A stretch of DNA of 63,505 nt, filler included, from Jimgerdemannia flammicorona (taxonomy: Eukaryota), in the NCBI GenBank assembly GCA_003990765.1. It is 3 parts of 3 records of this genome, joined end to end, with 100 filler letters (N's around TTAATTAATTAA, not from the genome) between each part and the next. Parts side by side here need not be neighbours in the genome. Positions count along the whole stretch, not along the records: positions 1 to 21,103 come from RBNJ01001531.1; 2 more parts are not named here. One strand, written 5' to 3'. How positions within the stretch are numbered: the first letter of the stretch is position 1; each line of letters starts with the position of its first letter. Positions 1 through 55,034 of the stretch are shown here, piece after piece. The position numbers and the translations under genes were made by a program. Under the pieces are notes generated by a model. That model saw only the letters and a list, made by a program, of their open reading frames with translations. It had not been told where the DNA came from and made no database searches.

Positions 1-75
<75 letters not shown>

Positions 76-79
<4 letters not shown>

Positions 80-1183
80 GAGATATCCAGATGTTAATTA
101 TAAATGAAATTTTATCTATAATACTTTATAGTAAAATTTAAAATATAATTAGTAATTATAATTAATTTAATAATACTTCTAATATTACTAATATTTTATC
201 TGAAGCTTTTGACAAAGTCTCTATAATATCATTATAAATAGTATCAGCACTTAGAGTGTATAAATCAGATTTGATAAGATCAAAAAGACTACTTCATAAA
301 GAAATATTTTCAATTACTATAAACTGTTATCATGATATATAATCTAATAAATAAGTTAATTTTAAAACCTTAGAAAAAACATGAAAAGTATAAAAGATAT
401 ATTTTCAAATCTATATTAAAATAAGAAAAATATCATCTACTTACTATAACTGGAATATTAATTTTACTTAATACTATATTTAACTCTGTTTTATTTAAAT
501 ATTGAGTCTTTATATACTTTATTATATTTATTATAAAACTACTATATGTTTTATATTTCTGCCTTTATTTTAAAAATTTTACATTTATATTAAATAAACT
601 ATAAATATATCCAAAGTAATTATAAGTTTTATTATTTTTTAAAAAAAAAAAAAAAAAAAAAAAATTACCTATAATATGTACTTATAAGTAACTTTATTTT
701 CACTACTTTTAGTATAGTATTGCCAAACTTCAGAATGAGAAGTATAGTGTGGAATATTATTTAAAAAAAACTGAATATTGTTTAAAGAAGTCGGACTTGA
801 AGTATCACTAGTACTGAAAAATACTGATAACTGATCTATAATATTAATATTAATATAGTATATATATTTATTTATTTATTTTCATATGTATATGTACTTA
901 TATATATACTTACAGGTATTTTTCTTTTATGTTCTTTTATTTATATATGAGTAAATTATATGTATAATAAGTTTAATTTATTTATAAAATTTAAACTAAA
1001 GATTTGAATTCAGAAATTTGAATCTAGTAATTTGAATTAGAGCAGTCACAATTCAAACTAATTTGAATTGATTACATAATAAATTTGAAATTAATTAAAT
1101 TAGTTATATGATGAATTCAAACTAGTTTGAATTAGAAATAATTACAGTTTAAACTAGTTCAAACTGACTCATTCAAAGTATTA
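76..1183 (-). mobile_element. Degenerate hAT DNA transposon, 5' part (transposase relic plus terminal inverted repeat)
   Basis: Minus strand ~330-76 reads QFIVIENISL*SSLFDLIKSDLYTLSADTIYNDIIETL..[intron-like]..DKISFIINIWISQ. This is a transition-mutated form of the hAT region F.VVE...PSADTIR..KISFTTDIWTS. 1166-1183 (GACTCATTCAAAGTATTA) equals the MITE TIR at 30593-30610 (GACTCGTTCGGAGCACTA) with only G>A/C>T changes. Confidence 0.75.
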
Positions 1184-1212
1184 GGATATTGATAATAATG
1201 ATATATTATAAT

Positions 1213-1690
1213 TTACTCTACAGATACTCTCCAATATATAGTTATAGTGAGATAGATACTAAGAATTTATAAAGACTTATTTGTTTCAGTCTCTTTCTTA
1301 ATAATTTTATTTCTAAGATAACTGAGGCTTTTGTCAAAAAATGAAACTCTATATAATATATACAAGTATAGATATCACAGTATATCCACAATCTCATTGA
1401 TGAGATTTATAGAAAGACTGCTCTATAGCTCATTCAAATCTTTGATATAATTATTATCTCTAACTTTAATAGTAGTTAAATGAGAAGAAGAACTATAAAG
1501 TAGAAGATAAATAATAAGATAGTATATAAGATAATGATCTGAATATATAGATAGTTTAGAGAGAAGCTCATATCAAAGGCAGAAGAGTTTGATAAATAAG
1601 TATATATAGTATCAGAGATATATACTAGTAAAATATATAGTTTATATAGATGAATAGATAATAAATTAGGAGGGAAAAAAATCTTTAATA
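1213..1690 (+). pseudogene. Fanzor2/TnpB-like RNA-guided nuclease relic (RuvC-II region to first zinc-finger half)
   Basis: One frame reads YSPIYSYSEIDTKNL*RLI..IHNLIDEIYRKTAL*LIQIFDIIIISNFNSS*M..KINNKIVYKIMI*IYR*FREKLISKAEEFDK*VYIVSEIYTSKIYSLYR*IDNKLGGKKIFN. This matches the Fanzor2/TnpB pattern IRNLVDELH.K.A.WL...FD.I..P.F...M.WAH..FR..L..KA......V.EAYTSKTCS.CG.I...LGG.K.F.C once transitions are reversed. Confidence 0.8.
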
Positions 1691-3252
1691 TAAGAGAGAT
1701 ATTAGATAGTTACCTAAAGTTATCTGAATAAAGTATGTTTTTTTTTTTTTATAGAGTAGTTATAAATATAGTGTATATATAAATATAGCAGTATAAATAT
1801 AGAAATCTCAATATATTTTACTTCTATAACTTAGTATAGTGATATCTAACTATCTTTATACTGAGATTAGTATCTACTTACTCTAAACTTAGTTAAGAAC
1901 AACTTTACTATCTTGAGTAAATATACATATAATGGGCAGTTTAGATAGATATGACAGAGATACATTTGTTTATTATAGTTAGTATGTATAATTTCTCTTA
2001 TTTTTCTTCCTTCTCTTCTCTTTTTTCTTAAAGCTAACTTATAAATAATATGATCTTTCTTTAAAGCAGATAGTCTGTATTTGATCCTGATCTATTATTT
2101 ATCATATTCTATCTTGATATCTGTTCAGCAATATATCTAATAATATATATTTAGTAATATATCTAATAACAAGACCAACAATATGCTAGCAATATATCTA
2201 ACAATACAATATACTCAGTAAGGATCTCAAGAGCAGCCATAGTAGTGGAGACTGATCATCATTTAGTTATTCTAAAGCTTTGAGAGACTCTCTGTCAATG
2301 TGGTTTACAGTTTTTATTAAGGAGTTTTATATTTCTATCCTTTATATCACCTATATCTACTATCCATACCTGAGCCAGAACTAGAATTTTTATATTGTCC
2401 CCCACATGTGCAGACATTAATAAGAAGAGAACTATCACTAGAGAACCATCCTAACTACTTTGTCTTTTTTTTTTTTTCCATATTTTAGACTGAAATACCT
2501 ATATAGAGAGTATTAATAAAGAGAGTATTGATGGAGAGGGCATCAATGGAGGGGGCGTTGATAGAGGGGAGGGGCAAGCAATGCATTGGACTATGATGAT
2601 TTTATATCTGAGTCCATAATGCATGTGCCTGGAGGATTTCCTTCAGGCTTTGCTGGTAGAGCTGTCCCTTAGGGGGCACCAGTTGTTGACATTGATTTGT
2701 TTGGTGGTGGTGGCTAGCAATGGCCAACACTGTCCATCAATGTCTGACTCAAGCCATCCGAGATATCATGATTTGAGTATGTTGCTGCTCCATTTTCACA
2801 TCTTCGTTCACTGCACCCGTCAACGAATGTCGCTCGTTTTTTATTAAGAGTTTTAGACCAAAAATATTTTTTCTCATATGCCCGAAAACGTAATAAGCTC
2901 CAGAAGGCCTCTTAGTGATATCACCATGAGAATATTCTCGATTGTATGGCACTATTCCGCTTCCTTCTCCTTTGTGTTGATTTGCTTGACCTCCGATTAT
3001 TGATCTTGGTGTGAACATTGAAGTTATGGCACTTTCGATCGTAATTGTCAAAAGTGGCGTGGGTTACTAAAGCAGCCTCGTGGGCAGGTATCGTCACGTG
3101 AAGATATCCAGGCCTTGAAGAGAAAAATACCAGCCACGCCAACTCCAAAGTTAAGGGGGCTTTGGCTGCTGTGAACGGTCGTATTGGGAACCATACCGCT
3201 ATTGCCTAACTTTGGTTTTGTATACCCACATCGTTGGCCTCGCGACGCATAC

Positions 3253-3934
3253 ATGACCATTTACTGGTGTCGTCTGGCACTTCTCGTCACCATTGCCCAA
3301 GGTAACCATTTGTGTCAACATATTTTTTCATTTCGTAACCACCTGTCTCTTCCTTGAGTAATTGGTTATTCTTCACTGAAGCTCCCGCAATTCCGCTCGT
3401 CAAGATTCGTAGGCCCTACTGCGTATTCCAAAACGCTGTCGACGTTGTTGCAAGGTAATCGTCTGCACATTATATTAGACCACAGTCGCGTGGGCTCCAC
3501 GTCAACTTCCATCGCGGTATCAATTCACAGTCTGCCCATTCTCTCACTTCACTAGATCCACGATTTTCGATACTGCTTCCCAGCTCAACACGTGTGCAAG
3601 GTAAACATACGTATTCTTTTAATGTTCGACCTCGTCTGGGCGCTACATTGAATCACTCTGCTCCTCAATTTGATCTTCAACTCACAGCCGTTCTATTCCT
3701 TCCTACCTCAGAGTCCACGACCCATTGAATTTGCTTGTCAAGAACGCAAGCATCTCTACCGACATCAAACGCGCGGAGGAGACTACAGGAAAGTAAATAT
3801 GAACGCCTTTCTTATAATGTATCCGCTGCAGTCTGGACTATGCTTTGGGAATTTTTTGTTTCGCATAATTAAATATCAACTCACAAACCCTCCCTCCATT
3901 AAGGTTCGTTCAAGCCTTACGGCATGCTTGTTAG
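3253..3934 (+). CDS. Putative small 5-exon protein (~100 aa) with hydrophobic N-terminus
   Basis: Exons 3253-3301, 3382-3454, 3556-3600, 3688-3792 and 3904-3934. All donors are GTAA and all acceptors AG. The spliced frame is open (MTIYWCRLALLVTIAQAPAIPLV...FVQALRHAC*). No homology recognised. Confidence 0.45.
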
Positions 3935-5835
3935 ATCTCCTAAACACCGGTTGAGCGCTGGGGAGCTTCCAGTGTCGTGTCCAGCAAGTTTTGAGAGTGG
4001 AAGACGTTCATGAGTGATACATCCGCACCGAGTGTGATAAGTTGGTCCTGGTACGACCGCGACGACCTCGACTGTTAAACACTGATGTTGAATAGTAGAG
4101 TCCCGTGGAGGGGGGGGGGGGGGGTGGGGGGTAGGGGTGCGGAGCTCGTCGCTTCTATACATATAGAACTTGTCTCCAGTGCGCAGGTACATTGTCGTAG
4201 TTTGTCATGATTTCGGGTAAGTGTTTCTTTTGAGGGGTTCTCGTACACAAAGTTTAGGGGTACATTTGTAACTCCTTAGCCAAAGGAGTCGCTGCATTCT
4301 GACTTACGCGAGTGCTCGACACTAGCATAGAAAGTTTGAGTGATTCGCGCACTCAATGCCCAGTGTTGAGAGTAGGAAAACCGGCTACCGGACTCCTGGA
4401 TTTTGGTTCGGGGGAAAAATGATCTGTTGTGACGAGTGGGTTTTGCGTTGTAAGATGGCATGCCTTGCCGCTCTTGTAAGTGTTGTCGGGTTGGTTTGTT
4501 TCCAATATTCCCTTCCTGCGGGCGCTCCTTCAAAGCGAGGGCCTTGCCAACTCACTTTTCCCTCCTCTTTTTTCGATAGGGTTTGTTGTTTGCGCACACC
4601 GGATCCGGTCATCCAATAGTTAGGGTGGTTGCCCGCCCTTTTGTGGGCGACAGGTGCGAGTGCAAATTACACACGGGATTCGTATTGTTATTTCGATGTC
4701 TGTGTTCGGATGGTACGCTTCCCTTGGAACTCGTTGAGCTGAGAGTCGATTCTATTTCCACCCTTCGGGTTGGGCGTGTTCGTGGCGCAGTCGGCGTTAT
4801 GTAGCTCACAAGTTAGTTTAGCGGAGCTGAAGACAGTTGTAGACAAGATTGCTATCGATGATGAGAGAGTTTGGTGGGGCGTATTGGTCTGGAGATGCAT
4901 GGAGTTTCTATAGGTCGTATCGAGACTGTCGTTCGGGCTTTTAGGTAATAGGACGTACTAGATACGTGTATTTCTGCCTGCTCGCACATGTGAAAAATTT
5001 ACTGGATTAATTCAAAAGCCGTGAATTTTATCAAAAATACAACATTCCAAACAACTCCACACCCTGCTTTGTGTCAATGTAAAAATATTCTAATGGGTGG
5101 GGGCACTGGGCTCTTCGCTGCCTACCAATCATACTGCCACCTATGGTTCCACCGCTCATCCCTTTTTACTCTGAAGCAACAATGTCACACCGTATTAGGT
5201 GGCGATATTGGCAAGGAATTGAGAAAGCGGAGATTTCACCCGAAATGTACCGACTTTCGGTCAAGTCGGTCGGCATCAGTGGACGGGGCAAATTCAAGGT
5301 CTCCAGTAGTAAAAATTGACTATAAATAGATCTCAAAGAACTATTTACGTAGAAACCTTGAATTTGCCTGATTATTAGCAAGCCTCTTGTTGCAATTTAC
5401 CCGATTCCTACTATCGGAACATCTGTGTTCCATAATGTTATAGTTGTTTGAATGACTCCTTAGTTTGGTATATATCAAAAATTGGAACACGTGACCTGAT
5501 GAGAGAAGAGAAAAGGGAGGCGTTTGTCGAATGGTCGGACGAAAGATTCTAAAACTCAATGACGTCGGTGTAGCGCCATGGTCATTACTTACGTTTTGAC
5601 GCAAAACCAGTCGCGGAGAATCAAACTTCATAATTTTGCACTGCGCCAGTGAGGACCCGTGCTCTCTATTTATTAACAGGTTTCGTCATGAGGGAGGGAG
5701 GTTATTGTGTTCGTGAAACGCGATCCAGTCAGTTGCATGGCTGAATCCACGTGGTGACCCACAAAGGGTTAAAACCCCCCACTCGCCTGCACTACCCATC
5801 GACCCCCTTTCCTGCCCTCACAAGCACGTCCGAAG

Positions 5836-8800
5836 ATGACACCGCAAGAAGTCATCCAAAACATTCGCGACAGATTTTTGATCGATGGCTCCGCGACGGA
5901 CGCATGGTACCTGCAAGAGACCACAGAGCGCGCACTGCAAAACCTTTCATCGGAGCTCTACACCAAGGACAATCACTTCATTCTCGAGCTACTCCAAAAC
6001 GCGGACGACAACAACTATCTGAGTGAGAATCTGCCGTCGGTGTGCGTTAAGTGGGACGACAGCCGTCACACGATTGAGATACGCAACAACGAGCTCGGGT
6101 TCAATGAGGATAATGTCCGGGCACTGTGCAACATTGGGCATTCTACGAAGGAGCGCATGCGGCGAGAGGGGTACATTGGAGAGAAAGGGATTGGCTTCAA
6201 GAGTGTTTTCAAGGTGGCCGATCGTGTCTTTATTGCCTCGAACGGATACTCTTTCGCGCTTGATTCCAGACGCTCTCTCGGAATGATTGCCCCGGAATGG
6301 ATCCCCCCCGATGAATTCCCGACCGATTGCGAAGACGGCTGGACCGTGCTCTATCTGGAGCTGAAGAGGACGGGCATCAATAAGGACGAGCTGAAGAAGC
6401 AATTCGACGACATACATCCTCGTCTGCTATTGTTCTTAAACAAAGTCCGTAGCCTGGAGCTTGACATTGCGGGACGTCGTCAGCGGTTCAAGAGGAACGA
6501 CGAGATAGTGAATGATATATCGTATATCAATATCTACCAGGATGGTCCTGAACCGCTTTCAGTCAGGCACCATTTTCTCGTTCACGAGCAGATCCTCAAC
6601 AAGCCCGATCACGTAGACGAGACCAAACGTAGCGAAGTCAAACAAACCACAATGATGATCGCCTTCCCACTCGATGACGGCGAGGACGAGAGAGCCTCGA
6701 CGGAGCTACAGAACATTTTCGCTTTCCTGCCGCTGCGCACGCAAGCGTTCAAGTTTATCGTTCAGGCCGATTTTTTGGTCACTGCCAGCCGCGAGAGCGT
6801 GATCGAGGGCAGCTCCTGGAATAAGTTCCTACGGGACGAGATCGCTGATGTTTTCATAGCGGCCGCGAAAATATTGAAGAACTCAGAAAAAGACCCGGCA
6901 CGCCAGACAGCCTTAATCTCGTACCTATCCTTAGCGAAAGACGTTGCGGACCCCTTCTTCCAACCAGTGGCTGACGCGATACTGAACGGCCTTTGCAGCG
7001 AGGACATTATTCTTTCATGCGAAGGGAGATGGTGTACACCCGATAGGATCTTGTACATATCAAAATTTTTCAAATGGAGGCAAAAAGCGCTGATTCCTAA
7101 TGATGACCTCCGACAAATCCGGGATGTAGAATATATTCACGAGCACTATAAATGGGCTGAACACGAATTACTGCTCAAAAAGCTCGGCTGCAAACCATTT
7201 GAAATCGAGGACTTACTTGCGTGCCTTAGGAGCTACGACGGCCCAACTCCTATCGACATATTGTGGCACCAACGAGTTCTGCATTGCTTCGCCAATGGTC
7301 ATCGAAAATCGATAGACACGTCCCCCCCTGTGTCGATACCGCCATCGGACATTACGAATTTGAACGTCTTTGTTGTGGATGATTCAGGCCTGCCGCGGAA
7401 AGAAACCCTCTCGAACGGCTGCACCTTCTTCCCATTTCATGACCGCTCCTTTACCGCGCCGGATTTTTCGATCAAGATCTTGCACCGCGAATCGTTCACA
7501 TCTAATTCACGCGATTTCCTATCCTGGCTTGGAGTCAAAGAGTCGCGAACGTCGGTGCTTGCTCATGAAGTGCTGAAACTCTACCAACAGTATGGGAGAC
7601 GGATCGATTCGCAACGATCTCAGAGAGAGCTGCTGACTCATATAGAGTTTTTCAGGCGACATCTAGGCGACCTGAGTGACGATCAGCGCAAAAGGCTGCG
7701 GAAGGATCTTGTACTTATGAAATGGGAAGGTGATTACCAGAGCCCAGAACAGCTCTACATTAATGCGAAGCCGACGCAGTACGACCTGGAGCAGATCTTC
7801 TTTTCATCACCTCTATCTCAGCTTCACGATCAGTACTTGTTGTCGACAAATGGGGACACTGATGCTCAGCAGAATTGGGTGTCGTTTTTGACGACAAACT
7901 GTGGCGTCAACCGAGCATTACCTCTTGATGACGAAGGTGCGCTTCCCCGTTGGATTATCAAAAAGCTTGATGTTGAAAAGGATGGGCAATTCGGTACCGC
8001 TGTGCTCGTAATGCTAAGTGACGTTTGGGCTGATGTATACGAGCCATTTTACAAGCGTTCTCAACGGAAGTTTTGCAAACAACTGGGCAACATGTGGGTT
8101 CCATGCGAAGGAGGGAGAACTGCGCAACTCAAATTGACGTCCCTGCGAACTCGCGAATTGGAAGGTGTGTTCAGACGAGAACTACTTTACATCGAGCTGC
8201 AAGAAATTTCAGGAGATGCAGAAGATCGCGATGAAAGATGGTCTTTTCTAAAGTTTCTTGGCGTTTCGGTGCGCCCGGAACCCCAAACCGCTCTCAAGGT
8301 GCTTGAGGTCATGAGCGGGCGCAGTGAGAAGGACATTACGGCTGTCGAGCCACTGTACAAATTCCTGGACGTTCACTTCTCCGAAGCACCAGACGCAATC
8401 AGAAAATCTTTTGGCGAGAACCCGCTCACCATAATCAAGGAAGGCTCGGTGAAATGGAAAAGGCTTGATCAAGTGCTGTGGAGCGGCGAAAGGAACATCT
8501 TCCGAAATTGGTCGTTTCTCGAAGACTCGCTTCCAGAATGCAGGAGCCTTTTCAACAAACTCAAAATTAAATCCGCCGGCGTCCATGATTTAGAGAGGAT
8601 GATCGCCGTGCTTGATCCGCAGAGCACTGATTGCAGCCTGCACATGGCGCAGGTGTACCTTTACCTCGCCGATTGGTTCCACAGTCATCATGATCACGAG
8701 AACCGCACTTGGCTCGCCAGCTTCGTTAAGAAAAAGGTATTTTTGGTCAGGCAAGGACCACGAAGGCGGGTCGTCTTTGAGAAATGGGGTTCTCAAATCT

Positions 8801-10767
8801 ACATTGCCGATCATAGGGGACTGGAGAATCTTTTCAAGGACGATTTGCACATTCTACACGTCCCAATCAACACTATTCCTGGGATGGAACCATTCCTACA
8901 ATTTCTAAAGCCACTAGCGCGACGTCTCTCCGGGATCACCTTGCAAGGAGTTGAACACTCACTAGACTTTACGGAAGACAAAGAATGGACCAACAGGGTA
9001 CGCATGTGCATTCCACTTTGTGCTAGAATAGTGCACAGCAGGGATGTAGTCGACATGGACAAATTCGTCGAAAAGAAGGTATTTGCAATGGCGAAAAATA
9101 ACCTCAAGGTTCTTCGAGCCGGTGGGATCCGCAAAATGTACTGCACGAGTAATGTGACCCGAAGCCTTGATGCGGACATGGTGGTGGAGCATAATGCGGC
9201 GCACATCAAGATTTGGATTTCAAGCAAGCTTGACAACTTAAAAACCAGACAACAGCTCATCAACGGTATCTGTGAAATATTTGGCGGCGGGGATCCTATT
9301 TTTATGCTTAAAGACCTTCTCCAGTATGCTCTGGACCCGGCCGGAACATTAGCACATTGTACATCTTTCATGCAAGAGAATGAAATTCCAGAACTACCAT
9401 CCAAATACAAGGACATCTTTGACGATTTCTCGGGTGTGGGTCCGAGCCCAGGTGTCAATCAAGATGCGACCGTACCAACAATAGTGGCAGCCGATTCTCG
9501 ACGAGATCAACGGCCAGAAGCACCAAGATCCCCGCAGACCGTGCCAATCATAGTTACGCCGAGTATGGCGAATCCTATCCGTTTGCCAAGGGCCGCTTCT
9601 CCGGAGCATCCACTTCCTCGCTCTGTACCGCCAACCTTAGATTCTGGCAAGTTCAGCGTCCGTTCCCAACAAGATTATATGCCTGAAGATGATGACCGGG
9701 AATTATTCGATCGACATGAAAGTCCTCCTCAATCAACATACGGCATTACTGCGCCCAGAGTTGTCCGTGGGCAACCGACAGAAGTTGTTTACCCCGCACC
9801 GGTCAATCTTTCACCGACAGTCCGGAAAGACCATCCAGACGCCGACGATCCTATTGCACTAAACATTGGTCCTTCTCGGCATGAGGCACCGCGTCCTACT
9901 CAACATACCCCAATTGCGATCCCCGCTAACCCGCAAATGGACAGAAATATCTCAACCAGTACGCCGTTTATTTCCCCCAATGGTACAATCCTGCAAACGA
10001 GCAGAAATCTCTCAACCGGTGCACCGATTATTACTCCCAATAGTGCAATCCAACGGAACGGCCTTAATCCCCAAGCCTACGACCGGATACCTGTTTTGGA
10101 AGATGGTGCAATCCAACGGAACGGCCTTAATCCCCAAGCCTACGACCGGGGATCTGTTTTGGAAGATGGTTTTTCGCTGGCATCCGATCAACCATTCGAT
10201 TCGGGACAACCGCCCCAGACGCATTTGCGTTCTACCATTGACGACCGCAACGATCAGGATGCCCGCGAGGTCGGTTATCTCGGCGAGCGTTTTGTCTATC
10301 GACAATACCGCGATGTCCTTCGGCTTCCTGGCTTCGGTCTTGCCAATTGGGTCTCGGTATTGCGAGACAACTACATCGCTGAAACATCCGGAGAACGTCC
10401 GGCTGACCTGGATCTCACACAAGCCGACCGAGAGATTGAGTGCGATTTCGTGTACAAAGACGTGGACGGGGTTCTCTCAAGAGAATTTAGGATGAAACCA
10501 ACAACGACGCCGAGAACGTTCTTCCTCGAGGTCAAGAGCACAACCGCCGCAGGTGGCGATCCGTTCCCGATCAGCGTGCGGGAGTGGGACTCGGCCCGAC
10601 GCATTTCCATGGAAAGATCGAATACCCGTGTGTATGTGATTTTAAGGGTGGAGCACGCGAGATCGGAGCCGACAATCGTAAGGGAATTGGATGATCCGTG
10701 GGCGCGTTGGAGACGCGGGGAATTTGTGGTGGAGACGGGGGAGTGGCTTGTGTCAAGGTTTATGTGA
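5836..10767 (+). CDS. Sacsin/NO VEIN-like protein: N-terminal GHKL (HSP90-like) ATPase plus C-terminal DUF3883-type PD-(D/E)XK domain
   Basis: Intronless 1643-aa ORF. GHKL motifs FILELLQNADD, NNELGF, IGHSTK and IGEKGIGFKSVF; IVQADFLVTASRE. C-terminal VGYLGERFVY..CDF..FLEVKST..FPISVREW. Confidence 0.85.
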   Translation: MTPQEVIQNIRDRFLIDGSATDAWYLQETTERALQNLSSELYTKDNHFILELLQNADDNNYLSENLPSVCVKWDDSRHTIEIRNNELGFNEDNVRALCNIGHSTKERMRREGYIGEKGIGFKSVFKVADRVFIASNGYSFALDSRRSLGMIAPEWIPPDEFPTDCEDGWTVLYLELKRTGINKDELKKQFDDIHPRLLLFLNKVRSLELDIAGRRQRFKRNDEIVNDISYINIYQDGPEPLSVRHHFLVHEQILNKPDHVDETKRSEVKQTTMMIAFPLDDGEDERASTELQNIFAFLPLRTQAFKFIVQADFLVTASRESVIEGSSWNKFLRDEIADVFIAAAKILKNSEKDPARQTALISYLSLAKDVADPFFQPVADAILNGLCSEDIILSCEGRWCTPDRILYISKFFKWRQKALIPNDDLRQIRDVEYIHEHYKWAEHELLLKKLGCKPFEIEDLLACLRSYDGPTPIDILWHQRVLHCFANGHRKSIDTSPPVSIPPSDITNLNVFVVDDSGLPRKETLSNGCTFFPFHDRSFTAPDFSIKILHRESFTSNSRDFLSWLGVKESRTSVLAHEVLKLYQQYGRRIDSQRSQRELLTHIEFFRRHLGDLSDDQRKRLRKDLVLMKWEGDYQSPEQLYINAKPTQYDLEQIFFSSPLSQLHDQYLLSTNGDTDAQQNWVSFLTTNCGVNRALPLDDEGALPRWIIKKLDVEKDGQFGTAVLVMLSDVWADVYEPFYKRSQRKFCKQLGNMWVPCEGGRTAQLKLTSLRTRELEGVFRRELLYIELQEISGDAEDRDERWSFLKFLGVSVRPEPQTALKVLEVMSGRSEKDITAVEPLYKFLDVHFSEAPDAIRKSFGENPLTIIKEGSVKWKRLDQVLWSGERNIFRNWSFLEDSLPECRSLFNKLKIKSAGVHDLERMIAVLDPQSTDCSLHMAQVYLYLADWFHSHHDHENRTWLASFVKKKVFLVRQGPRRRVVFEKWGSQIYIADHRGLENLFKDDLHILHVPINTIPGMEPFLQFLKPLARRLSGITLQGVEHSLDFTEDKEWTNRVRMCIPLCARIVHSRDVVDMDKFVEKKVFAMAKNNLKVLRAGGIRKMYCTSNVTRSLDADMVVEHNAAHIKIWISSKLDNLKTRQQLINGICEIFGGGDPIFMLKDLLQYALDPAGTLAHCTSFMQENEIPELPSKYKDIFDDFSGVGPSPGVNQDATVPTIVAADSRRDQRPEAPRSPQTVPIIVTPSMANPIRLPRAASPEHPLPRSVPPTLDSGKFSVRSQQDYMPEDDDRELFDRHESPPQSTYGITAPRVVRGQPTEVVYPAPVNLSPTVRKDHPDADDPIALNIGPSRHEAPRPTQHTPIAIPANPQMDRNISTSTPFISPNGTILQTSRNLSTGAPIITPNSAIQRNGLNPQAYDRIPVLEDGAIQRNGLNPQAYDRGSVLEDGFSLASDQPFDSGQPPQTHLRSTIDDRNDQDAREVGYLGERFVYRQYRDVLRLPGFGLANWVSVLRDNYIAETSGERPADLDLTQADREIECDFVYKDVDGVLSREFRMKPTTTPRTFFLEVKSTTAAGGDPFPISVREWDSARRISMERSNTRVYVILRVEHARSEPTIVRELDDPWARWRRGEFVVETGEWLVSRFM
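9942..10170 (+). repeat. In-frame tandem duplications (60-bp and 63-bp periods) in the low-complexity linker of the sacsin-like gene
   Basis: RNISTSTPFISPNG / RNLSTGAPIITPNS, then AIQRNGLNPQAYDR..VLEDG twice (starts 10043 and 10106). Confidence 0.9.
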
Positions 10768-21203: not shown

Positions 21204-24200
21204 CCCCCCCCCTCCCACTCTCTTTTGATGAAAGACCACTTTGTCCAACACCATCACTATCTGCTCCCTACTCAATTTATAGATCTCTTCCACCAGATGG
21301 TTGCAGCACCCACTCTGGGGACCCTAGCCCACCCACCACCCAGCCAGCAAATCCCCCATCAACTACTCCCATCACAATAACTTTTCCTGCAAACCCATCT
21401 GTCACTCCTCCTTGAAAACAAAGAGCCAATGTCCAGCCAGCCCTACCCATACTACTAAAACCCACCCTAAAGTGAGCTAACTATTACCCACACCACCCAC
21501 TAACCGAGACTTCAAATTCTCCCAGCAACCTCTCTCTCCATCTGGCCTCCTCTCCACACCCAGCTGGTCCCCTACAGCTATCCAAAAGTCCCCCAGAACC
21601 TCACACTCTCCCAACCAATGTTCTGGCATCTGTACAAAACCCCCAACTTGCTCTACATTATAACACTCCTCACAGTCCAGTCGGCCACCATCCACCAGAT
21701 GTCCAGCTTGGAAATTCAACATGACATTCTACCTCAGCATCTGCTACCATACTACCCAGAACTTGGGAGGGAGCCACCTCTGCACTACAGCACTCCATGA
21801 CCAAATACCTGCCCAATCCCACTCCTCACCGATTCTCACTATCTGCCAACCACTTGGCCAAAGATCCTGGCCAAGTCCCTGCTGACACTCCACTCCATCC
21901 CCAATATCGAACTCAGCAAGTGAAACGCCCCCCAGAAGCAGTCTGTCCCATTGCCACATAGCCAGTCCCCATAACACCTCTCCCTCATTGCCTTGCCATT
22001 GCAGGCCTATCCAGTGTGCACCATCTGCCACCCCCCACCAGAAGCTCTTATACTGCAGCTGGCGACTTTCATTCTGACCCACCAGTGAGAGCAAATCTCC
22101 TGAGGACCCTCGAGGGGAAAATCTCATCTCCCATACCTTCTGCATCAAAGGCACCCAATCACCTCCCTGCAGTTCAATAGCCCTTTTCAACCACCAGGTA
22201 CATAAGTAGTGTAGCCTCTTAGAGAAGTCCACAAGGTCTAGTTCTCCCCTAACCATCAGTGAAGCAAGAGTATCCCAACTGATCTGAGACCTCCTCCCTG
22301 CCCAAATCTAATCTCTTGCCATTTTCATCAGCCTCTTCACCACCCAAGCTGGGAAGTCTAAATGATAGGCCACATACCACAGCTTGGGAAACCAGTAGAC
22401 ATTCAGAATCGATACCTGCCCTGCCAGAGAGATATGGCAACCCCCCCAACCTCTAAGAGCTTTCCCCCAAATGTTCACCCTCCTCTCCCACCACACTCAT
22501 GGCAAGACAGATCCATATATAGAGAGGAAGATGCCCAGATACTGAACTACTTCCCCTGTAGGGACAATTGTTCCAATGATATCCCCTCCTACAAGCCCAT
22601 TCCCCAGCACCATTGTCTCACACTTATGCCAGTTAAGTTTTGTCCCAGAGTGTACTTCATACCATTCCACCATTGTCTTAAGAGCCTCAACGTCCTTCAC
22701 AGATCCAAGTCCAACCACTATGTCATCTACAAAAGCCCCCATCTTCCACCCTATACCATACAGAGAGATCCCTACTACCTTCCAGCGAATCCTATCTATC
22801 AGAGGTTCTAATGAAAGGGCATAGAGAAGAGAAGACAGTGGATCACCTTGAGGAACTCCTCTTCCCAAAGGAAATGCCAGACCTTGGTGACCATTACACA
22901 TCAGTACAGCTCAACAGATTCAATATAGATACTCAAAATCATGAGGGGACACCAATTCTATCCAGCACCTTGCCCAGCCAGACCCTCCAAATCTGGTCAT
23001 AGGCCTTCTCCTGGTCCAAAAAGACCAGTCTTCCATCCAGTCCACAAGCCCGTATCTCTTCAATGATGCTATGCACCCAGGCAGTCTCATCTCTAATAAG
23101 CTGGCCGCCAACAAAACCCCACTGCTTCTCACCCAACACCTGTTGGGCCACCTTCTGTAGCCTTACGACAATCACCTTAGTCACTATCTTCCTGTCCATA
23201 TCCAGGAGCATGATTGGTCTCCAGTTCTTCCAGTCTTCCCTTCTTCTCTTGTCTTTATATAGTAAGGCCACCAGCCCCAGGTCCTGCTCTCCAACCCACT
23301 CACCCTTCAGAAGGACATAGTCACAGAGGGCTGCCATCTCTCCTAACACTCCAGGGATCTTAGCCATCTTCTTCCAAAAGTCCCACAAGAGCCCATCCTC
23401 ACCCAAAGCTATCCTGAGCTTAGTTGTCACAAGGACTTTCTGGACTTCCTTCTCTTGAACTGGTAGGACCAAGTCACCAAGGCCCTCTACATGCAGTGGC
23501 TCCCACTCCTCCAGCATGTCTCCAATTTTCTCTTCATCAGCACCCCCTTCCTCCTCACTCCACAGTCCCCTCTATCTCTCCTTCAGAATCTCCAAGATCT
23601 GTTGCATACCATGCACCATCTCCCCATCTGCATCAAGGACCCCATCCCACCTATGCCACACCCTTCTAGCTTGGAGGAGCCTCAACAGATACCTACTAGG
23701 CCACTCTCCCTCCTCCATTCCCTGCCATTATAATCTGGCAGCCATTTCTTCAATGTGAATCTCCTCCTCCTCTTGCAATACCTGTTGCAGTTCCACTACC
23801 TCCAATCTTGCCCATTCTAGCCTCCAATCCTCCACCTCTGCCAAAGAAAGCAAATCAGCCCATTCTCTCTGCAATTGCAATAGCCTATTAGAGGCATACT
23901 GAACTCTCTTCCTTCTCTGTCTCCCAGTCTCCCTACCAGCTCCTCCCCAATAAACCCTCGCAGCCTCCTTCAGTCTCATCCATCAGACACCTACAGATGA
24001 ACCCTCATGCATCCAGGTAGTAATCTTCACCTGGATGTCCTCCACCCATGGGTCCCACAGCACCTTCTCGGCCAGCAGAGAGGAGTTAAGGTGCTAATGT
24101 CTGGGTCCATCTCCACTCCCCCCAAACTGCTCCTGCCCTAATAGTCCCCAGTGATCAGACCATGGGCACTACTCCACCTCAAAAGACTGCCAAACATCAA

Positions 24201-26985
24201 TACTCCAGCATTCGGCTGTCAGAATCCAGTCAATCCTCATACCCAGTCCATTCACCCAGTGCATGTAGGCCCTCATGGTGCCCCACTTTGTTCTACCTGC
24301 ATCCCTTAAGGAGCTAAGGTGGTTCTCCACCTCCTCTCATGCATCTAGACCACCACTCCTCCCACCTGCACTTCTCCCTTCATCAGTCCTATCTAACTGT
24401 GGATCCCACACCATATTAAAGTCACCTCTCAGAATATCTACTCCCTCCTCTAAGAGAATGCCCTCCTCTAACAAATTCCTGATCCACTCAATCCTCTCAT
24501 CTCTAACCACAGGGCAGTAGCAGGAGCCAACCCTCACTGGTTCCCACTCAGGTCTATGCCACTCCCCTCAGACTAAACAGTCCCCCCAGCTCCTAATGTC
24601 CCCCAAATCTCCTCTACCCTTCTTCACCATAATTGCCACCTTGCCAATCCAAACAGTAGCTCTACCCCATTCTCTAGTCCACTCTGCCTGATCCTCAACC
24701 TCCTCACATTGGACATCCTGTAGTAAAAATAGATCAGCCTCCAATCCCTTAAGCCAAGTAAAAATATTCTTATGTCACCCAGATCCCCTTAACCCATTCA
24801 CATTTAGAGAGAAAATGTTCGTTGTACTGTTCATAAAGAATAATGTTGATTGTTGGTCTCATCCTCTACAAGTCTACATTTAACTCCTTCTGTGCTAAGT
24901 CCAAGTTATGTTCAGCAGCCAGTCCCTTCTCTATAGCTTTCTGTACCTCCAATCCTCCCAGAAGTTCAGCCAATGCCCCATCCTCTTTCTCCTCAAAGTC
25001 CTCATGGTACTCCAGACAGGCCTCCTGCCAGAGCTGCAAACCATGATGCTCTGCCCAGCAGTAGGCAGCCCGCTCACCAGCAACTACCGCCAGCTCTACC
25101 TCTCTTACCTTGTCGACCTCATATCCCTCCTTCTCTATGAAGATTGCAAGAATCTCCACTTTCAGTGCCTCCACCACCCCATCACTACACAGAATCCATG
25201 CCCAATGCTCCTCAGGCATTACCCACAGGTCCACTTCCCCCAACTCCTCAGCTGCAAGGTTATCCATCACCTTGCTCATCTACAGCAAGTTCTCCACCTC
25301 CTTCCCTCCAGGAGTCTCCAGCCACCCTGCATCCAACATCATGGTATCTGCTCTTACACTAGCAGCCTCATCCCACTCCTCCTCCAGGACATCCACCAGC
25401 TCGTCCTCACCAACTGCCACTACCTGGCCCCCTTTCGCCACATCAGGAACCCCAAAGTGGACTCACTGGGCCCTCTGCATCAGTACCTCCTCTGCTCCCC
25501 CTCTCTTTGCAACTGGGCCCCTCCTGATAAGTGGGGGGGGTGCTATCTAAATCCTGTTCCCAGACTTCGAATGTACTATCTGCATAGGGGTCCTTGCTCA
25601 GCACCTTCCCAGCCTCTTTCTTGTTCACCTCCACCTCTTCTCCTTCATTGCTAGCCCAGACACTGGCTCCAATGCCCCCAGGCTCCTCATCCTCATTTAC
25701 CTTCTTCTTTGCCCCTTCTTTCATACTGGCCAAAAGTGCCCTCTGCCTCATTTGCCCCTGGGCCCACTCCCACTGCCTCTTGTCAGTCGGATGTGCTTCC
25801 CCTCCACAATCTCCAGGTGTATTGACTCAACATAGTGCTTCCAGGCCTTCGCTCACCATTCAACTGTACCACTCAACTCCTCTAGTGCTTCCAACAAGTC
25901 CTCCTCCTCCTCCTCACTCCCCTTCACCCTTGACACCTTATAGACAAATGCCCCCCACATCAATACTGAGGGCCAGTCACTCACCTTCCCTGTGGCCTCT
26001 CTCCCTGCCAGCCTAATCCTGACATCAACATCACCTGTCCTGATTGTGGTCCCCTCCCACACCTGGAAGCTGATATCTACTATGTCACCATACTCTGCCA
26101 TTACCTCCTCCACTCTTCTCCTAGTCTCAGTCTTCATCACCGTAGGCACCCCCTTCACCAGCAACTGTACCACTCTGGGATCCCACCTAAGGCAACACAC
26201 CATAGGGACCACCACTTCCCCGACCACCACTCTAGTCTTTAGTGCCTCATCCAGCAGGCCTGCCTTCTCAAAGCCCACCTCAACCCCCTCCAGCCCCTTC
26301 AGGAATTTCACTGAGGCTGCCTCAGCCACCTGCTGTGAGACAAGCCCCAGGATCATCCTTGCAGTTACCACTAAGCCCCAGAAGCACAAAGTAGCTACAA
26401 ACTCCAAAATTGACTTCTTGAGTAATGGCACCACTGCTAGCCCTGTCATATCATCAGCCAGGTCCCTCATCCACTTTGGGCCCATCTGCCCAGCCTCACC
26501 ATCAGCCATCACATCTGGATTTTTCTCCAGATTCTCAGTCATACCACTATCAGCAGTCCTGCCACTACCCCCAGAAGCCACCCCACCAGCCCAACCACCC
26601 ACCGGCAGAGGACCAGCTCCTCCAGCTCCTCTAGCCCCCCCAACCTTCTGCTTCCCCTTTCCTCCTGCCTGCCCACCCCGAGTCCCCATCAGCCAACCAC
26701 CATCTCTCAGCATATCTGTAAAGCTCCTCCCTGTCTGCCCTCCAGTTCCACCACCAGTGCCACTTCCACTGCCTGAGCTGCCCTGCCCACTCTGACCACC
26801 GAAAGACCCCATCTCCAGTTCATACCCTCTCCCGACATACTGCCAGTTGAAGGCCCCAGGTCTACCTGACCTAGTATGTACATCTGCTTGCTTACTAATT
26901 GACATTGCCTTAATACCTTTCTTCAATAAATGACTTGAAAGTATATTGTAAAGTGTGTATAATGTGAATTGTAGTGGAGAAAGGT
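21204..26985 (-). mobile_element. L1-clade non-LTR retrotransposon, near full length, decayed
   Basis: ORF1 runs from ~26905 to 24866 and ORF2 from 24834. APE motif GDFNMV, WRPIMLLDMDRK, FLDQEKAYD, GVPQGDPLS and AFVDD. Many stops and frameshifts; CpG nearly absent. The 3' end is cut by the contig edge. Confidence 0.93.
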
Positions 26986-31001: not shown

Positions 31002-32924
31002 ATGGACAGCAATGATCAAACTGGTGGGTGTACTGGCCAGGGGGGTGACAGTGCCTTTGGCTGGCAGCAGGTGGGGAGGAGGGGAGATGGTTTGGGGATG
31101 CCAGAGGCCTTGATGACAGATAGAGGTACTGGCAGTAGTGGAAGGGGTGGTTTGAGGTAGAGAGGAGGAGAGAGGTCAACCTTTGCAGACAAGGTCAGAA
31201 TGGGGCAGATGGCTTCTGGGTTGGATGGTTGGCTGGGCTTGGGGAAGGCATCAACGGTGGCTGCTGGGGGACAGGGAGGTGTGCCCAGGGGAGCCTCTGG
31301 TGGTAGAGTAGGAGCCGGAGTAGGGGCTGGAGATGGTGCTGTGACTGCTGATGGGGCTGTGACTGGGAATCTGGCAAAAAATCCAGATGTGACGGTGGTT
31401 GGCAATTCGGGACTGGGAGCAGGCACGAGGCCCAGAGACCTGGCAGATAGCATGATGGGCATGGTGTCGGCCCCATTACTCAAGAAGTCGAGGTCGGAAT
31501 TTATGGTCACTATGTACTTCTGGGGCTTGGCGGTGACAGCAAGGATGATTCTGGGGCTGGTGGCACAGGAGGCGAAGGGAGCAGCATCAGTGAAGTTTTT
31601 GAAGGGAAAGGAGGGGGTTGAGGTGGGGTTTGAGGAGGAAGACGCCCTGTTGGTAGCCATGGAGAAGGGGGTGACAGTTGGCGGGGTGGTGATCCCTATG
31701 GCTCGTTGCATGTGCTGGAACCCCCGGGTGGTACAGTTGACGGTGTTGGATCTCCCGACTATGGCAAAGGAGAGGACCAGAGAGCTGGTTGTGGAGGCGA
31801 TCAAGGAATTTGGAGAGATTGTGGACGTTGGGTTCAAGGTCTGGGAGGGCACGATGCTGAGGACTAGTGATGTCGATGTCAGGGTGAGGCTGTTTGGGAA
31901 GGAGAATACAGGAAAGTTGAGGGACTGGCCAGTGACTCTGAGGTGGGGACCAGTGGAGTGTAAGGTTGCAAGGGTGAAGGGGACTCAGGAGGAGGAGGAG
32001 GACCTGTTGGAGGCACTGGAGGACCTGGAAGGGGCTGTTGCAAGGAGGAGATTGGCCTGGAAGGAGTTTGAGGCCAGTACGGTGGTAGGGGAGGTAGAGG
32101 GAAAGAGGGTCCGGATGGAGAAGGGGGCTTGGGAGAAGATGCAGGGAAGGAAAATTCAGAAGGAGCTACTGGTGAGGTTGGGTGGGGATAGGGCTGATGG
32201 GAGCTCAGAGGAGGTAGCTGCAGGGCTGCAGGAGAGTGTCTGGGCTGAGGGGGGAGGAATGGCCCAGGGTGGGGCACAGATTGGAGGGGGGGAAGAGACG
32301 GGTGGCGAGTTGGAGGTGGATGCCGAAATGGGGGAGGGTGTGCACCCTCAGTATAGTGTCCCGGGCAGGGCAGAGGGGGAGGAGGAGCTGCTGGATGTGC
32401 CGGATGAAGAGTGGGATGAGTCGGTGAGGAGGAGTGCACTGATGGACCCCGAGGTAGATGGGGGACAAATTGCTCAGGGTGTGGCGGAGGCAGTGGATGA
32501 GGAGAAGTGGATGTGGAAGACCTTGGAAGGGGTTGCGGCTGAAGAGCTGGGGGGTGAGGACTTCCGGGTGATAGAAGAGAGGCATTGGGAGGAGATCCTT
32601 CGAGGGGAGGAAGTGCCAAGGAAGATGAGGAATGAGATCCTGGCTGTCCTCCTGGAGTCAGTTGAATACCAAGTGGATGATCAGCAGGAGGAGGAACTCC
32701 GGAAGATTGCAAGTGATAGGGCACTTTTCTTGTGGAACTCGAGGAAGGGACTGGAGAAGTGGCATACAGTCTGCTTGGACTACTGGTCAGATATGGAAGT
32801 CGTGGATGGGGTGGAATGTCAGGAAATCTTGGAGGCATTGGATGCTCAGGCTATTGTGGAGGACGACTTGGAAGCTGAACGGCGCTTGGATCTGACTGGG
32901 GATGAGATGAGCATGGAATATTAG
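31002..32924 (+). pseudogene. LINE ORF1 (Gly-rich N-terminus, RRM-like core, acidic C-terminus)
   Basis: ATG at 31002, one in-frame TAG at 31158, then a 574-aa open stretch homologous to the ORF1s at 26905 and 44128. Confidence 0.85.
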
Positions 32925-32955
32925 GTTGGGGTCGACAAATCAACATTCCTTCAAT

Positions 32956-35900
32956 ATGAACAGTACAATCAAGATATTCTCATTGAACGTTAATGGGTTG
33001 CGGGGGACTGCTAGGAGGAAATGCATATTTGGATGGCTTAAGGGACTGGACGCGGACCTCTTCTTGTTACAGGATGTTAGATATGAGGAAGATGTGGACC
33101 TACAGGATTGGATGAAGGAATGGGGGGGTGCGGCAGTCTGGAGGGGGAAAGTGTGTATTCTTGTTCAGAAAGGGAGGGGGGACATTGTGGACATTGGACA
33201 TTGGGGGTCTCAGGTGGTGTGGGGTATGTGGAAGAGGCCTGGAAGGGGCTCGTTGACAGTTGGGTCTTGTTATTGCCCAGCTGATAGAGGAGAGAGGGTG
33301 GATTGGATTCGCTATTTGAAAGAGGCTGGTGTATTAGGAGAGATTGGCCTGGATTGTATGGGGGGGGACTTCAATATGGTACAGGATAAGGAGGTGGATA
33401 GAACAGATGGTGGGAGAGGGGTGTGGGGCGAAAGTGGTGGGCTGGGCGAATGGCTGGAAATAGAGAGATTGTGTTCTTTAGTGGACTCAGAAAGACACCT
33501 CTGGGCTGATCGGTGGGTGTGCACCCACTGGGCAGCAGGGCTAGGCTCAAGGATTGACTGGGTGCTAATGGCGGAGTATTGGGGTGCAGATGTCTGGTCG
33601 ATGCTGGAAGTGGTATGGTGTCCATGGTCTGATCACTGGGGACTGCTTGGAGGGGGGAGGTTTGGGGGAAATGAGGATGGGCCTGGACATTGGTGGCTAA
33701 ATTCCTCATTGTTGGAGGATAGGGTGGTGTGAGAGGGTTGGGAGGTGGAGGTGGTTGGGAAGATCTGTAGGTGGCGGAAACAGGGCCTGGGGATTGGAGA
33801 CCATTGGAGAAGACTGAAGTCAACTGCCCAGAGGTATTGGAGGGAAGCGGGGAAAGGGAAGGGTACCCAGCGAAGGCAGAAGGTGCTGTGGGCCTCATGG
33901 CATCTGGCAGCTCTCTTGGGGAGATGGGCAGATGTGCTAGAAGATGGGGACGTGACTGATTGGCATATTGTGAGAATCCGGCAGGAGGTCAATGAGCTTA
34001 CTGGAGTGTTACATAAGGAGGAGGAGGTGAAGCTGCAGGGGATGGTGGCCTGATTGCAGTGGCAGGGGCTGGAGGAAGGAGAGAGGCCTACTAGGTTTTT
34101 GTCGAGGATATTACAAGCCTGACAAATGAGGCAGAGATGGGAAGGGGTTCTGGACATGAACGGTGAGCTGGTGGTGGGGTCGCTGGCAATTCTGGGCATA
34201 TTGAGGGACCGGTGGGGGAACTTGTGGAGTGAGGAGGAGGGAGGACTGGATGCTCTGAACGTTGAGAGGCAGCTGGGGGATGGGCACCCAGACCCTGTGA
34301 TGGGGCTTGGGACATTGGGGGACCCAGTGTGTGGCAAGGAAATTCGCTGAGTTATAGCCTCAACGAGTAAAGGAACTGCTCCAGGAGAAGATGGGCTTCT
34401 CTGGGATTTTTGGCAGAAAATGGTTGGTGTTGATGAGGTGCTAGCGGAGATGACTACTATGTGTGATGAAGTTCTTCGGTCTGGTGCCTGGATTGGGGGA
34501 CAGCATTTAGGGTTAGTCTCCTTGCTCTACAAGAACAAGGGGAGGCGAGAGGACTGAAAGAACTGGCGGCCTATTATGCTTCTCGACATGGACCACAAAT
34601 TGGTGACCAAGATCTTGGTGATAAGGCTGCAAGGCATTGCTCAACAGGTGCTTGGTGTGAAGCAGCATGGGTTTGTTGGTGGTTGGTTGATTTGAGATGG
34701 GACAGCTTGGGTTCATGGAGTAATTGAAGGTGCCCAGGTGGTAGGGGTTGATGGACGTCTGGTGTTTCTGGACCAGGAGAAGGCTTATGATAGAGTGTGG
34801 AGGATTTGGCTGGAGGGGGTGCTGAAATGGATTGGTATCCCCCTGGGGTTCCGAGGTTCTTTGATCAGTCTCTTGGAGGACAGCCAGGCGGCATTGGTTG
34901 TTAATGGTCACAGGGGGGTGACTTTTCCCCTGGGCCGTGGGGTGCCCCAAGGGGACCCCCTGTCGCCCATATTGTATGCCCTTTCTCTGGAGCCTCTACT
35001 GGACAGGATTTGGCACCGAATTGGGGGTTTGGACATTTTAGGGGTGAATTGGAAGGTGGGGGCCTTTGCTGATGACATGGTGGTCGGGCTGGGCTCCCTG
35101 GTGGATGTAGGGGAGTTACAGGGTTCTGTGGAATGGTATGAGAGAGGCTCTGGTGCCAAGCTGAACTGGCACAAGTGCGAGACTCTGGTGCTAGGTAATG
35201 GAATTATTGGTGGCAAGATCATTGGGACAGTGGTACCTGCTGGAGAACCGGTTCGATATCTGGGGATCTACTTTTCAGTGTTCGGCTCTCTTCTTCCCCA
35301 GGCATGGTGGGAGCGTCAACTATTGGAGTGGGGAAATGTTCTGCTGCATTGGGGAGGCCGGCATATGTCCCTAGCTAGAAGGGTGATGGTACTGAATGTA
35401 TATTGGATGCTGAAGCTGTGGTACATGGGTTATCATTTAGACTTCCCAACTTAGGTGATCAAGGGGCTGTTAAAGATGGCGAGGTCATGGATCTGGGGAG
35501 GGAAGCGGAGCCAGATCAGGTGGGAGGTGCTCACTCTGCCCTTAGAATGAGGTGGGCTGGGCTTAGTGGACTTTACTAAGCAGCTCCTATGCCTTCGAGC
35601 TTGGTGGCTGAGGAGGGCGAGTGAGCTTCGAGGTCGGGAGTGGGTGCCACTCATACAGCAGTTGTGGGAGGTTCGGTACTCTCCATGTGGTGGCTCGGGT
35701 GACCTGCTCACAATGGTGGCCATGGCGGGAAGCGGGAGGATGCAGTTTACGGGCTTCTGGTGGGGGGTGGTGGATAGTGCTAAGAAGATTGGACTTTGAT
35801 GGTGTGGTGATGAAGTTGAGGAGGATTGGGGACCGTGGATGTGGCGGTGGGACAGGCTGCTATTGGGTGGTGTCCTGGTGGAGGACTTTCAGCTCGGTGA

Positions 35901-36558
35901 GAGTCTGGAGTGTCTGCGAGGCCTAGGGGGAGACTTGTGGCCTGAAGCCTGGCAGAGGGTTGGCATTGGTGAGGAGTGGGACTGGAATGGACTCTGGCTC
36001 TGGAGCAAAAGGGTGAGGCAGTGGCTGCCCCCCAAGTTCTGGGTGATATGGTGGCGTGTCCTATGGCAGAATGTGATATTGAACTATCAGTCTGGGCACT
36101 TGGTGGATGGTGGAGTATTTGAGTGTGAGGAGTGTTGCAATGTAGGACAGGAGGGAGGCATGGTACAAATGCCTGAACATTGGCTTGGTAAATGTGAGGT
36201 TTTGGAAGAATTCTGGGGTAGTATTGGGAACCGAGTGGGGCTGAGTACTCTGGAGGGAGAGGGAGGGGGGAGATGGGGAGAGCTCTGTCGGCGACTGGTG
36301 GGGGGAGTTGGAGATGAGTGGCTGACCCTTGGGTGGGCTTTGGCTGTGTGGGTCAGGTTGGTGGGACATTGGGTGCATGTGTTTGAGGATGGACAATCAG
36401 TTGGCACTGGGGAAAAAATGGTGCATTGGGAATGGTTGCTTTTGGACATTTTGAATAGCTGGTGGCAGGGCTGGGGGCTGGGTGGAGGGGGTCACAGGGG
36501 GTTGGTGCAGCACATCATCCTGAAGAGTGGGGGAAGAATTTGGGTTATGAGTGATTGA
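32956..36558 (+). pseudogene. LINE ORF2: APE endonuclease, reverse transcriptase and C-terminal Cys/His knuckle
   Basis: All fragments lie in one frame: SLNVNGL, LLQDV, GDFN, RIDW, WSDH; LDQEKAYDRV, GVPQGDPLSP, AFADD, RYLGI; CEEC..EHWLGKC. Broken only by point stops. Confidence 0.93.
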
Positions 36559-36755
36559 GTGGTGATCAGGCAGGGAGAGATTGAAGGGGGAGGCCTGGGC
36601 CCAGGGGGCATTGGTTGAGGGATAGAGTGAAATTATATTATATGTACTATAGAATTAGTAATAAAGGGCAGTCCAAGTGACTATAAACAAAAAAAAAAAA
36701 AAAAAAAAAAAAAATATATATATATAAATAAAAAAAAAATATAAAAAAAAAAAAA

Positions 36756-42304: not shown

Positions 42305-42404
42305 NNNNNNNNNNNNNNNNNNNNNNNNNNNNNNNNNNNNNNNNNNNNTTAATTAATTAANNNNNNNNNNNNNNNNNNNNNNNNNNNNNNNNNNNNNNNN
42401 NNNN
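42305..42404. other. Artificial contig linker
   Basis: Same N44-TTAATTAATTAA-N44 spacer. Confidence 0.95.
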
Positions 42405-50283: not shown

Positions 50284-50290
50284 TCATTCA

Positions 50291-54996: not shown

Positions 54997-55034
54997 CTAT
55001 AAATATATATATGTAAATATCGTAATTTCGACCA

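Follow-up and report, generated by a model that had tools for sequence, protein, structure and literature searches.

The window, by which we mean the whole stretch of DNA analysed here, comprises 63,505 nucleotides (nt), filler included, from Jimgerdemannia flammicorona (GenBank assembly GCA_003990765.1); positions 1 to 21,103 come from contig RBNJ01001531.1. Its genes are of the eukaryotic type. An intron-less open reading frame of 1643 amino acids (aa) on the plus strand (5836-10767) matches a sacsin-type ATPase and, weakly, the C terminus of NO VEIN. Three related copies of a non-LTR retrotransposon with strong GC skew and with endonuclease and reverse-transcriptase matches lie at ~21700-26900 (minus), 31200-36600 (plus) and 42350-44240 (minus), and a cluster of F-box-like genes, one of them with a Pfam F-box match, is found at 48490-57910 (minus). 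The left edge of the window carries the following features.

77-1183 (no strand assigned): relic of a high-copy, hAT-like DNA transposon that reaches back to the contig start; a terminal inverted repeat closes it at 1183
1184-1222 (+): intron tail (final 39 nt); the GT-AG intron, 85 nt in all, is complete in the sister copy C20466
1223-1731 (+): decayed Fanzor2 exon with 11 internal stops, covering the bridge helix/RuvC-II region, the start of the zinc finger and the C-terminal helix
1390-1404 (+): NLIDE, a motif in the frame read from 1204
1555-1584 (+): FREKLISKAE, in the frame from 1204
1612-1632 (+): SEIYTSK, in the frame from 1204
1615-1617 (+): codon of the shifted RuvC-II catalytic Glu in SEIYTSK, retained (motif as defined in 10.1101/2023.08.09.552727)
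1636-1647 (+): first zinc knuckle, CxxC decayed to YSLY
1666-1686 (+): LGGKKIF, in the frame from 1204
1689-1701 (+): here 60 nt were deleted in frame, and with them the second knuckle and RuvC-III (DRDxN)
1732-2595 (+): long 3' stretch found in the window's subfamily only, with a possible splice donor (1733-1737) at its start
2596-2760 (+): right end and candidate omegaRNA scaffold, with stem-loops and a 3' CCATCC able to pair with an upstream GG(A/G)TGG
2758-2760 (+): CCG at the right junction, the putative recombination core
2761-2780 (+): host flank, the would-be guide if the right end were transcribed (guide position as in the TnpB/Fanzor literature); homology among copies ends at 2760

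An earlier note on this DNA had claimed a stop-ridden frame of the Fanzor2/IS607-TnpB type at 1213-1690, and this frame is real. Read from 1204 on the plus strand, it carries FDII, FREKLISKAE, SEIYTSK and LGGKKIF as listed; the motif given there as NLVDE reads NLIDE and becomes NLVDE by back-correction of one residue. Stops interrupt it 11 times between 1213 and 1690, and a twelfth one follows at 1729-1731. With a profile built from 122 homologues, two of which come from the same genome, the raw translation scored 112.6 bits, whereas the best of 1000 shuffles reached only 7.5 bits and three other listed frames scored below 0 with the same profile. In a blastp comparison, it was 44.7% identical over 159 aa to the stop-free metagenome protein P0004. 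With Pfam only, the raw translation stayed under threshold (PF07282, 19.1 bits versus a cut-off of 26.3). Judged from these matches, 1223-1731 is the decayed C-terminal half of a Fanzor2, a pseudogene that encodes no nuclease.

The extent of the relic had to be revised on both sides, since the coding sequence begins at 1223, after the intron tail, and the element reaches 2760 and is thus larger than claimed. In the window's subfamily, the 85-nt intron splits a Trp codon directly after RuvC-I; L240, an unmutated, internally deleted metagenome element in which both end regions are present, has no intron at the position of 1184-1222, and distant subfamilies align to the window copy from 1223-1225 onward only. 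Rightward of 1731, homology to sister copies extends for 1 kb and then stops sharply at 2760 (...CCATCCG). The intervening stretch, 1732-2595, probably consists of one or more introns plus low-complexity sequence. Whether the stop at 1729-1731 is the true gene end is uncertain, since a splice donor comes next and relatives carry an intron here. RuvC-I and RuvC-III are missing, as had been noticed: RuvC-III was lost with the 60-nt in-frame deletion, and RuvC-I lies outside the contig. The catalytic triad is therefore incomplete, with the RuvC-II Glu alone remaining; PEF was dropped as the RuvC-II residue because the Glu is shifted in Fanzors (10.1101/2023.08.09.552727). Similarly, from the C-terminal motif D-X(125,275)-[TS][TS]-XX-C4 finger-X(5,50)-RD (PMC3627910), the window copy has kept TS; the finger is decayed, RD is deleted and the first D is off the contig. 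The left half of the window copy was not found, and its tnpA is deduced from sister copies. C8892, considered as the missing half, ends at a repeat end in the same intron but does not join to the window's start.

The stops had been explained by C>T/G>A changes. This holds for 7 of the 11, which arise from the L240 codon by such changes alone, whereas 4 need another change relative to L240; at these four positions, some copies from the same genome read CAA, CAG or TGG. The window copy and L240 are identical at 275 of 467 aligned bases, and the 192 differences comprise 130 C>T or G>A changes, 9 in the reverse direction and 53 transversions. The number of CpGs in the aligned region falls from 34 in L240 to 0 in the window copy. 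Compared with the five closest relatives from the same genome and one partial copy, transitions made up 363 of 423 differences. C>T change in the window copy was 0.72 in the CpG context, 0.69 in CpA, 0.50 in CpC and 0.45 in CpT. Since all four contexts were hit, though CpG and CpA most, classical CpA-only RIP is not supported as the cause, and the base changes support a deamination-type decay of both strands. The observed/expected ratio of CpG drops from ~1.0 outside to 0.35-0.45 inside, exactly at both ends of element copies. This depletion has the pattern of a repeat-targeted mutation process, with CpA as affected as CpG in the window copy; further inward from the element boundaries, AT content and TpA increase.

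The proposal that this genome hosts or hosted a Fanzor family is borne out by about 100 matches in the assembly. The relic as the query gave 101 genome matches (129 of 129 candidates scored), the PF07282 profile gave 70 above its cut-off and a 416-aa homologue gave at least 104 (best 100 of 167 candidates scored); these are matches and not copy numbers. Relics of a serine-recombinase gene, tnpA, lie upstream of Fanzor in C16058, C83, C2260, C5737 and others, and in C16058 a MerR-type helix-turn-helix (HTH) and a Resolvase domain were recognized. The nearest sister, C20466, contains both the 5' and the 3' parts of tnpA and aligns over 1135 nt, from tnpA into Fanzor, with the metagenome locus L241, which has introns in tnpA and Fanzor, one stop and one frameshift. 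None of the 8 Resolvase matches was free of stops. In L241 (86-620) and L124 (C16058; ~1530-1920), tnpA runs into the start of Fanzor, the two overlapping in two frames over ~100 codons with one shared intron, and P0115, on a 2.7-Mb contig, suggests the same overlap. A second, divergent IS607 tnpA family is present in the same genome (L104-L108 and L110).

The ends of the element are well defined. At 24 separate places, some of them in distant subfamilies, the right end is sharp, and right ends at 29 loci read CCATCCG, followed by unrelated sequence. The T at -4 of the right junction (29/29) lies within the search pattern, and thus the left-flank counts alone are unbiased; there, outside the search pattern, we found A at -4 in 25/29, C at -3 in 25/29, C at -2 in 25/29 and G at -1 in 23/29, with L074, a probable chance match among 19 type-A left ends, included in the counts. 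Left ends are of two types and carry short direct repeats, with five perfect 10-nt direct repeats in C7854. The true left ends are located 160-310 nt before the tnpA start; a left end 118 nt before it was discarded, since this is a repeat inside a truncated copy. Left and right ends are not inverted copies of each other, and CCG is found at both junctions. One complete element with both ends was found, C83, which carries an insertion. In addition, three gene-less copies of 483-660 nt (C591, C7057 and C9320) have both ends and resemble ghost loci. A tnpA with HTH and serine recombinase, the lack of terminal inverted repeats, the shared short core and the direct repeats assign the family, by its sequence features, to the IS607-type elements, with (A)CCG as the predicted target motif.

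Intact copies had been suspected elsewhere. They were not found in this assembly, but in metagenomes the DNA of other organisms holds stop-free relatives that have the same right end (P0124). Among the at least 104 matches to the 416-aa homologue (best 100 of 167 candidates scored), there was no full-length stop-free copy, and none of the 57 distinct loci examined by alignment to P0006 was intact. The only one of these 57 with more than 300 stop-free residues is C32534, which covers 381 of 416 residues, retains DPG, the shifted Glu, the C4 finger and DRDxN and is, with 72.6 bits for PF07282, the best-kept copy of this genome. C32534 also has an intron; its defects are a one-base frameshift after RuvC-I and a second frameshift plus deletions in the 5' part.

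Could the family nevertheless be alive in this organism, with intact copies collapsed or missing in a short-contig assembly? The assembly has 35,354 contigs, in which young identical copies could be collapsed, and the searches of the genome itself scored the best candidates only. Moreover, C32534 has its long stop-free stretch with the motifs named above, its 3' half retains its CpGs, and a contig from run X1 has the base that is missing at the one-base frameshift. Against this, the X1 contig shares the 5' defects of C32534, and it has twice the depth of its neighbours, while both of its differences match the paralogue C15806; it may be a merged contig. A second sample, run X2, has the same one-base frameshift and further indels, and the stops in all Resolvase matches also speak against a living family. 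We regard a living family in this organism as improbable. In run X2, on L044, a C32534-type copy is unspliced, with a depth of 181 versus 3 for another contig.

The right end is a candidate structured RNA. The last 161 nt fold with -62.9 kcal/mol (z -3.9), and 0 of 200 shuffles were as low; the last 160 nt of the unmutated L240 gave a z of -3.4. In 13 ends, the 3' CCATC forms pairs with G(G/A)TGG further upstream, and the terminal hairpin has a GCAA or GTAA loop. In one specified structure, 92% of the cells pair, compared to 39-53% when it is slid. Support from covariation is weak: two-sided change was seen in 4 of 28 pairs, a value reached by 27 of 500 shuffles, and the covariation term of RNAalifold was about zero. 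A search of window positions 1-4000 against Rfam gave no match at E values up to 1. The right end fits an omegaRNA with a 3' pseudoknot as in TnpB and Fanzor2, although this is no proof.

The distance from RuvC-III to the right end varies from ~130 to 1020 nt depending on the subfamily. In L240, a candidate intron of 64 nt (1123-1186; GTAAG-CTAAC-TAG) lies between the end of the Fanzor gene and the scaffold, and other subfamilies have donors or acceptors at matching places. The proteins P0004, P0125 and P0124 continue in translation into the same right end as in the window's family; since they read through the candidate intron, their C-terminal tails probably reflect faulty annotation. In the window's subfamily, the 5' part of the scaffold resembles the last 60 nt of the gene, a likeness that beats 200 shuffles in 12 of 14 ends but does not exceed them in the C83, C5510 and C7332 types.

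It could be argued that selection preserves the right end as an independent "ghost" source of guide RNA, or as an RNA used by the host, despite the dead gene. Ghost loci have been described for Fanzors (PMC10432273), short gene-less copies with both ends do occur here, and GC, ~0.31 in the interior, reaches 0.51 over the final 100 nt of the right ends (28-34 ends). Yet the same 100 nt are as depleted of CpG (0.35) as the interior, a similar, weaker gradient is present at left ends, and an edge effect of the mutation process accounts for the rise in GC. Several ends have deletions within stems, and an intact protein partner was not found in the assembly. Selection on the right end is therefore quite unlikely.

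The earlier note had also seen a hAT terminal inverted repeat about 30 bp to the left. There is indeed a terminal inverted repeat whose last base, 1183, lies 30 nt to the left of 1213, but it is foreign to the Fanzor element. TAG- or CAG-starting inverted repeats are hallmarks of hAT elements. The label hAT is backed by 8-bp duplications at two other insertions (one of three automatically paired ends, plus C21107, recognized by eye with three transitions), but not by a transposase, since no Pfam transposase was found in 15 translated frames. The repeat at 77-1183 gave at least 67 genome matches (best 40 of 457 candidates scored), and a terminus as at 1183 occurs in 31 different contexts among the loci examined. 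It is a separate transposon that abuts the Fanzor relic inside the intron and cuts it off on the left.

If, instead, the Fanzor had been captured and carried by the hAT transposon, the inverted repeat at 1183 would be the element's own end. Its vicinity, 30 nt from the claimed start, and the hAT-Fanzor neighbourhoods that are reported to be frequent (PMC10530073) would be in line with this. However, the end of the repeat faces away from its own body and into the intron of the Fanzor gene, and the sister copies C20466, C7753, C9774 and C1648 carry on as Fanzor at this very spot. In addition, the terminus recurs in many contexts and breaks other Fanzor copies at other positions, and the Fanzor family is equipped with non-inverted ends and a tnpA of its own. 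The sister alignments already refute capture by hAT, to which we assign hardly any probability. Practically negligible is the idea that the motifs arose by chance in AT-rich DNA or stem from contaminating bacteria: the region has a GC content of only 22% and the raw translation misses the Pfam cut-off, but the profile score far above all shuffles, the ~100 related matches in the genome, the GT-AG introns and the continuation of the same contig into eukaryotic-type genes contradict it.

The relationship of the family was deduced from its better-preserved members. C32534 and 119 of 120 homologues have DPG at RuvC-I, and the window copy has the Glu shifted beside the zinc finger (SEIYTSK); by these motifs, the family belongs to the Fanzors rather than to ordinary TnpB. 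The C-terminal motif of PMC3627910 is complete in C32534, P0004 and P0124. Among 24 matches of C32534 to solved structures at E values up to 1, none was named Fanzor1; the best was the mimivirus Fanzor2 9b0l (E 4.5e-20; next, 1.2e-8). P0124, known here from the protein alone, is stop-free over 492 residues, has the full triad and aligns with 9b0l from RuvC-I to RuvC-III (E 1.3e-21). By similarity, the family is thus closer to Fanzor2/IS607 TnpB than to Fanzor1, and the proposed Fanzor2/IS607 type is upheld by this match and by the tnpA relics upstream. The C terminus of C32534 as the query gave 1266 protein matches, of which the nearest named were from a chytrid and glomeromycetes: Fanzor2-like proteins of Borealophlyctis nickersoniae (chytrid), Diversispora epigaea and Cetraspora pellucida (glomeromycetes) are 54-58% identical to C32534 and are annotated only as hypothetical or transposase. 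The chytrid proteins and the window copy fall into the same 11-row branch (96/93) of a tree that holds close homologues only, with no rows for Fanzor1 or ordinary TnpB, and in which the window copy sits on a long branch of unusual composition. A chytrid protein, P0010, is annotated as FHA and HMG-box domains fused to a Fanzor2; the fusion may come from a faulty gene model at an insertion.

Taken together, 1184-2760 very probably represents a dead copy, reduced to its right half, of an IS607-type transposon with Fanzor2 that had adapted to eukaryotes. The living element would have measured ~2.5-3 kb. Behind a left end with short direct repeats would have come tnpA (HTH plus serine recombinase) and, overlapping it, the Fanzor2 gene with its spliceosomal introns; a structured right end would have closed the element. 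TnpA would have moved it by recombination at a CCG/CG core, with a preference for ACCG sites, and neither inverted repeats nor a longer duplication would have been involved. The ends and genes are seen in the copies; the chemistry is inferred from IS607, where recombination by TnpA uses a short shared core and leaves no duplication (PMC6188088). By analogy to work on TnpB and Fanzor, the right end with ~20 nt of flank would have given rise to the omegaRNA, and Fanzor2 would have cut empty donor sites that have (A)CCG plus the guide, so that the element was retained, while its own junction, TCCG, would have been spared. The nuclease motif is reported to match the insertion motif, with a one-base difference at the element's own junction preventing self-cutting (10.1101/2023.08.09.552727); application of this rule therefore predicts (A)CCG as the target and TCCG as the spared junction. 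The window copy then fell silent under heavy C>T change of both strands, most of all at CpG and CpA, lost 60 nt including RuvC-III and was cut by a second transposon.

Beyond the single copy, one may speculate, and we hold this for rather doubtful, that there is a fungal IS607-Fanzor2 clade, intact elsewhere (P0124), whose nuclease reads ACCG and spares its own TCCG, whose guide scaffold has been freed from the coding sequence and in which splicing may help to make message and guide from one transcript. On this reading, the scaffold overlaps the gene end in the shortest subfamily, and elsewhere it is set apart by a spliceosomal intron or by a duplicated tail of the gene.

The window copy itself is dead, ordinary and of no consequence. 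The family supplies P0124, a compact Fanzor2 that is naturally free of stops, together with a defined scaffold at the right end and (A)CCG as the predicted motif. To speak of candidate new eukaryotic RNA-guided nucleases, as was done before, overstates the novelty, since fungal Fanzor2 has already been described (PMC10432273), and the family would bring one more orthologue into a tool class that already holds a CCG cutter. Fanzor2 in IS607-type elements with a serine recombinase and without inverted repeats was described in 2013 (PMC3627910); the broad occurrence of Fanzor2 in fungi, the CCG motif of NlovFz2 and ghost loci are found in PMC10432273, and intron gain in Fanzors in PMC10530073. 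Fungal Fanzor2, introns in Fanzors and a CCG motif are thus already published. The family as such may already be tabulated, because Fanzor censuses list thousands of loci in supplements. An intron between gene end and scaffold and an ACCG motif do not appear in the passages of the Fanzor literature consulted, supplements apart; the intron, if true, would be a small new point on the nuclear adaptation of a bacterial-type RNA-guided element.

Among known systems, ApmFz2 of Acanthamoeba polyphaga mimivirus (L79, PDB 9B0L), encoded in an IS607-type element, has DPG, the shifted Glu, the C4 finger and a tnpA in front, as well as a short GC-rich target motif and a conserved 3' non-coding end. It differs in its motif, which is GGG (PMC11832414) and not the (A)CCG predicted here, and the family described here has introns; moreover, the window copy is dead. 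NlovFz2 of Naegleria lovaniensis has a measured 5'-CCG motif (PMC10432273), which equals the core of the insertion motif found here, and it is likewise multi-copy with gene-less "ghost" loci (PMC10432273); the extra A strongly preferred at -4 sets the present family apart. Bacterial IS607 elements (Helicobacter pylori IS607, ISXfa1) have a GG core and no introns, and the active-site spacing of the ISXfa1 TnpB is ordinary. They share with the family of J. flammicorona a serine-recombinase tnpA with an N-terminal HTH, short direct repeats in the ends, the lack of inverted repeats and the same short core at both junctions (PMC6188088), and a junction that is one base off the preferred target (10.1101/2023.08.09.552727).
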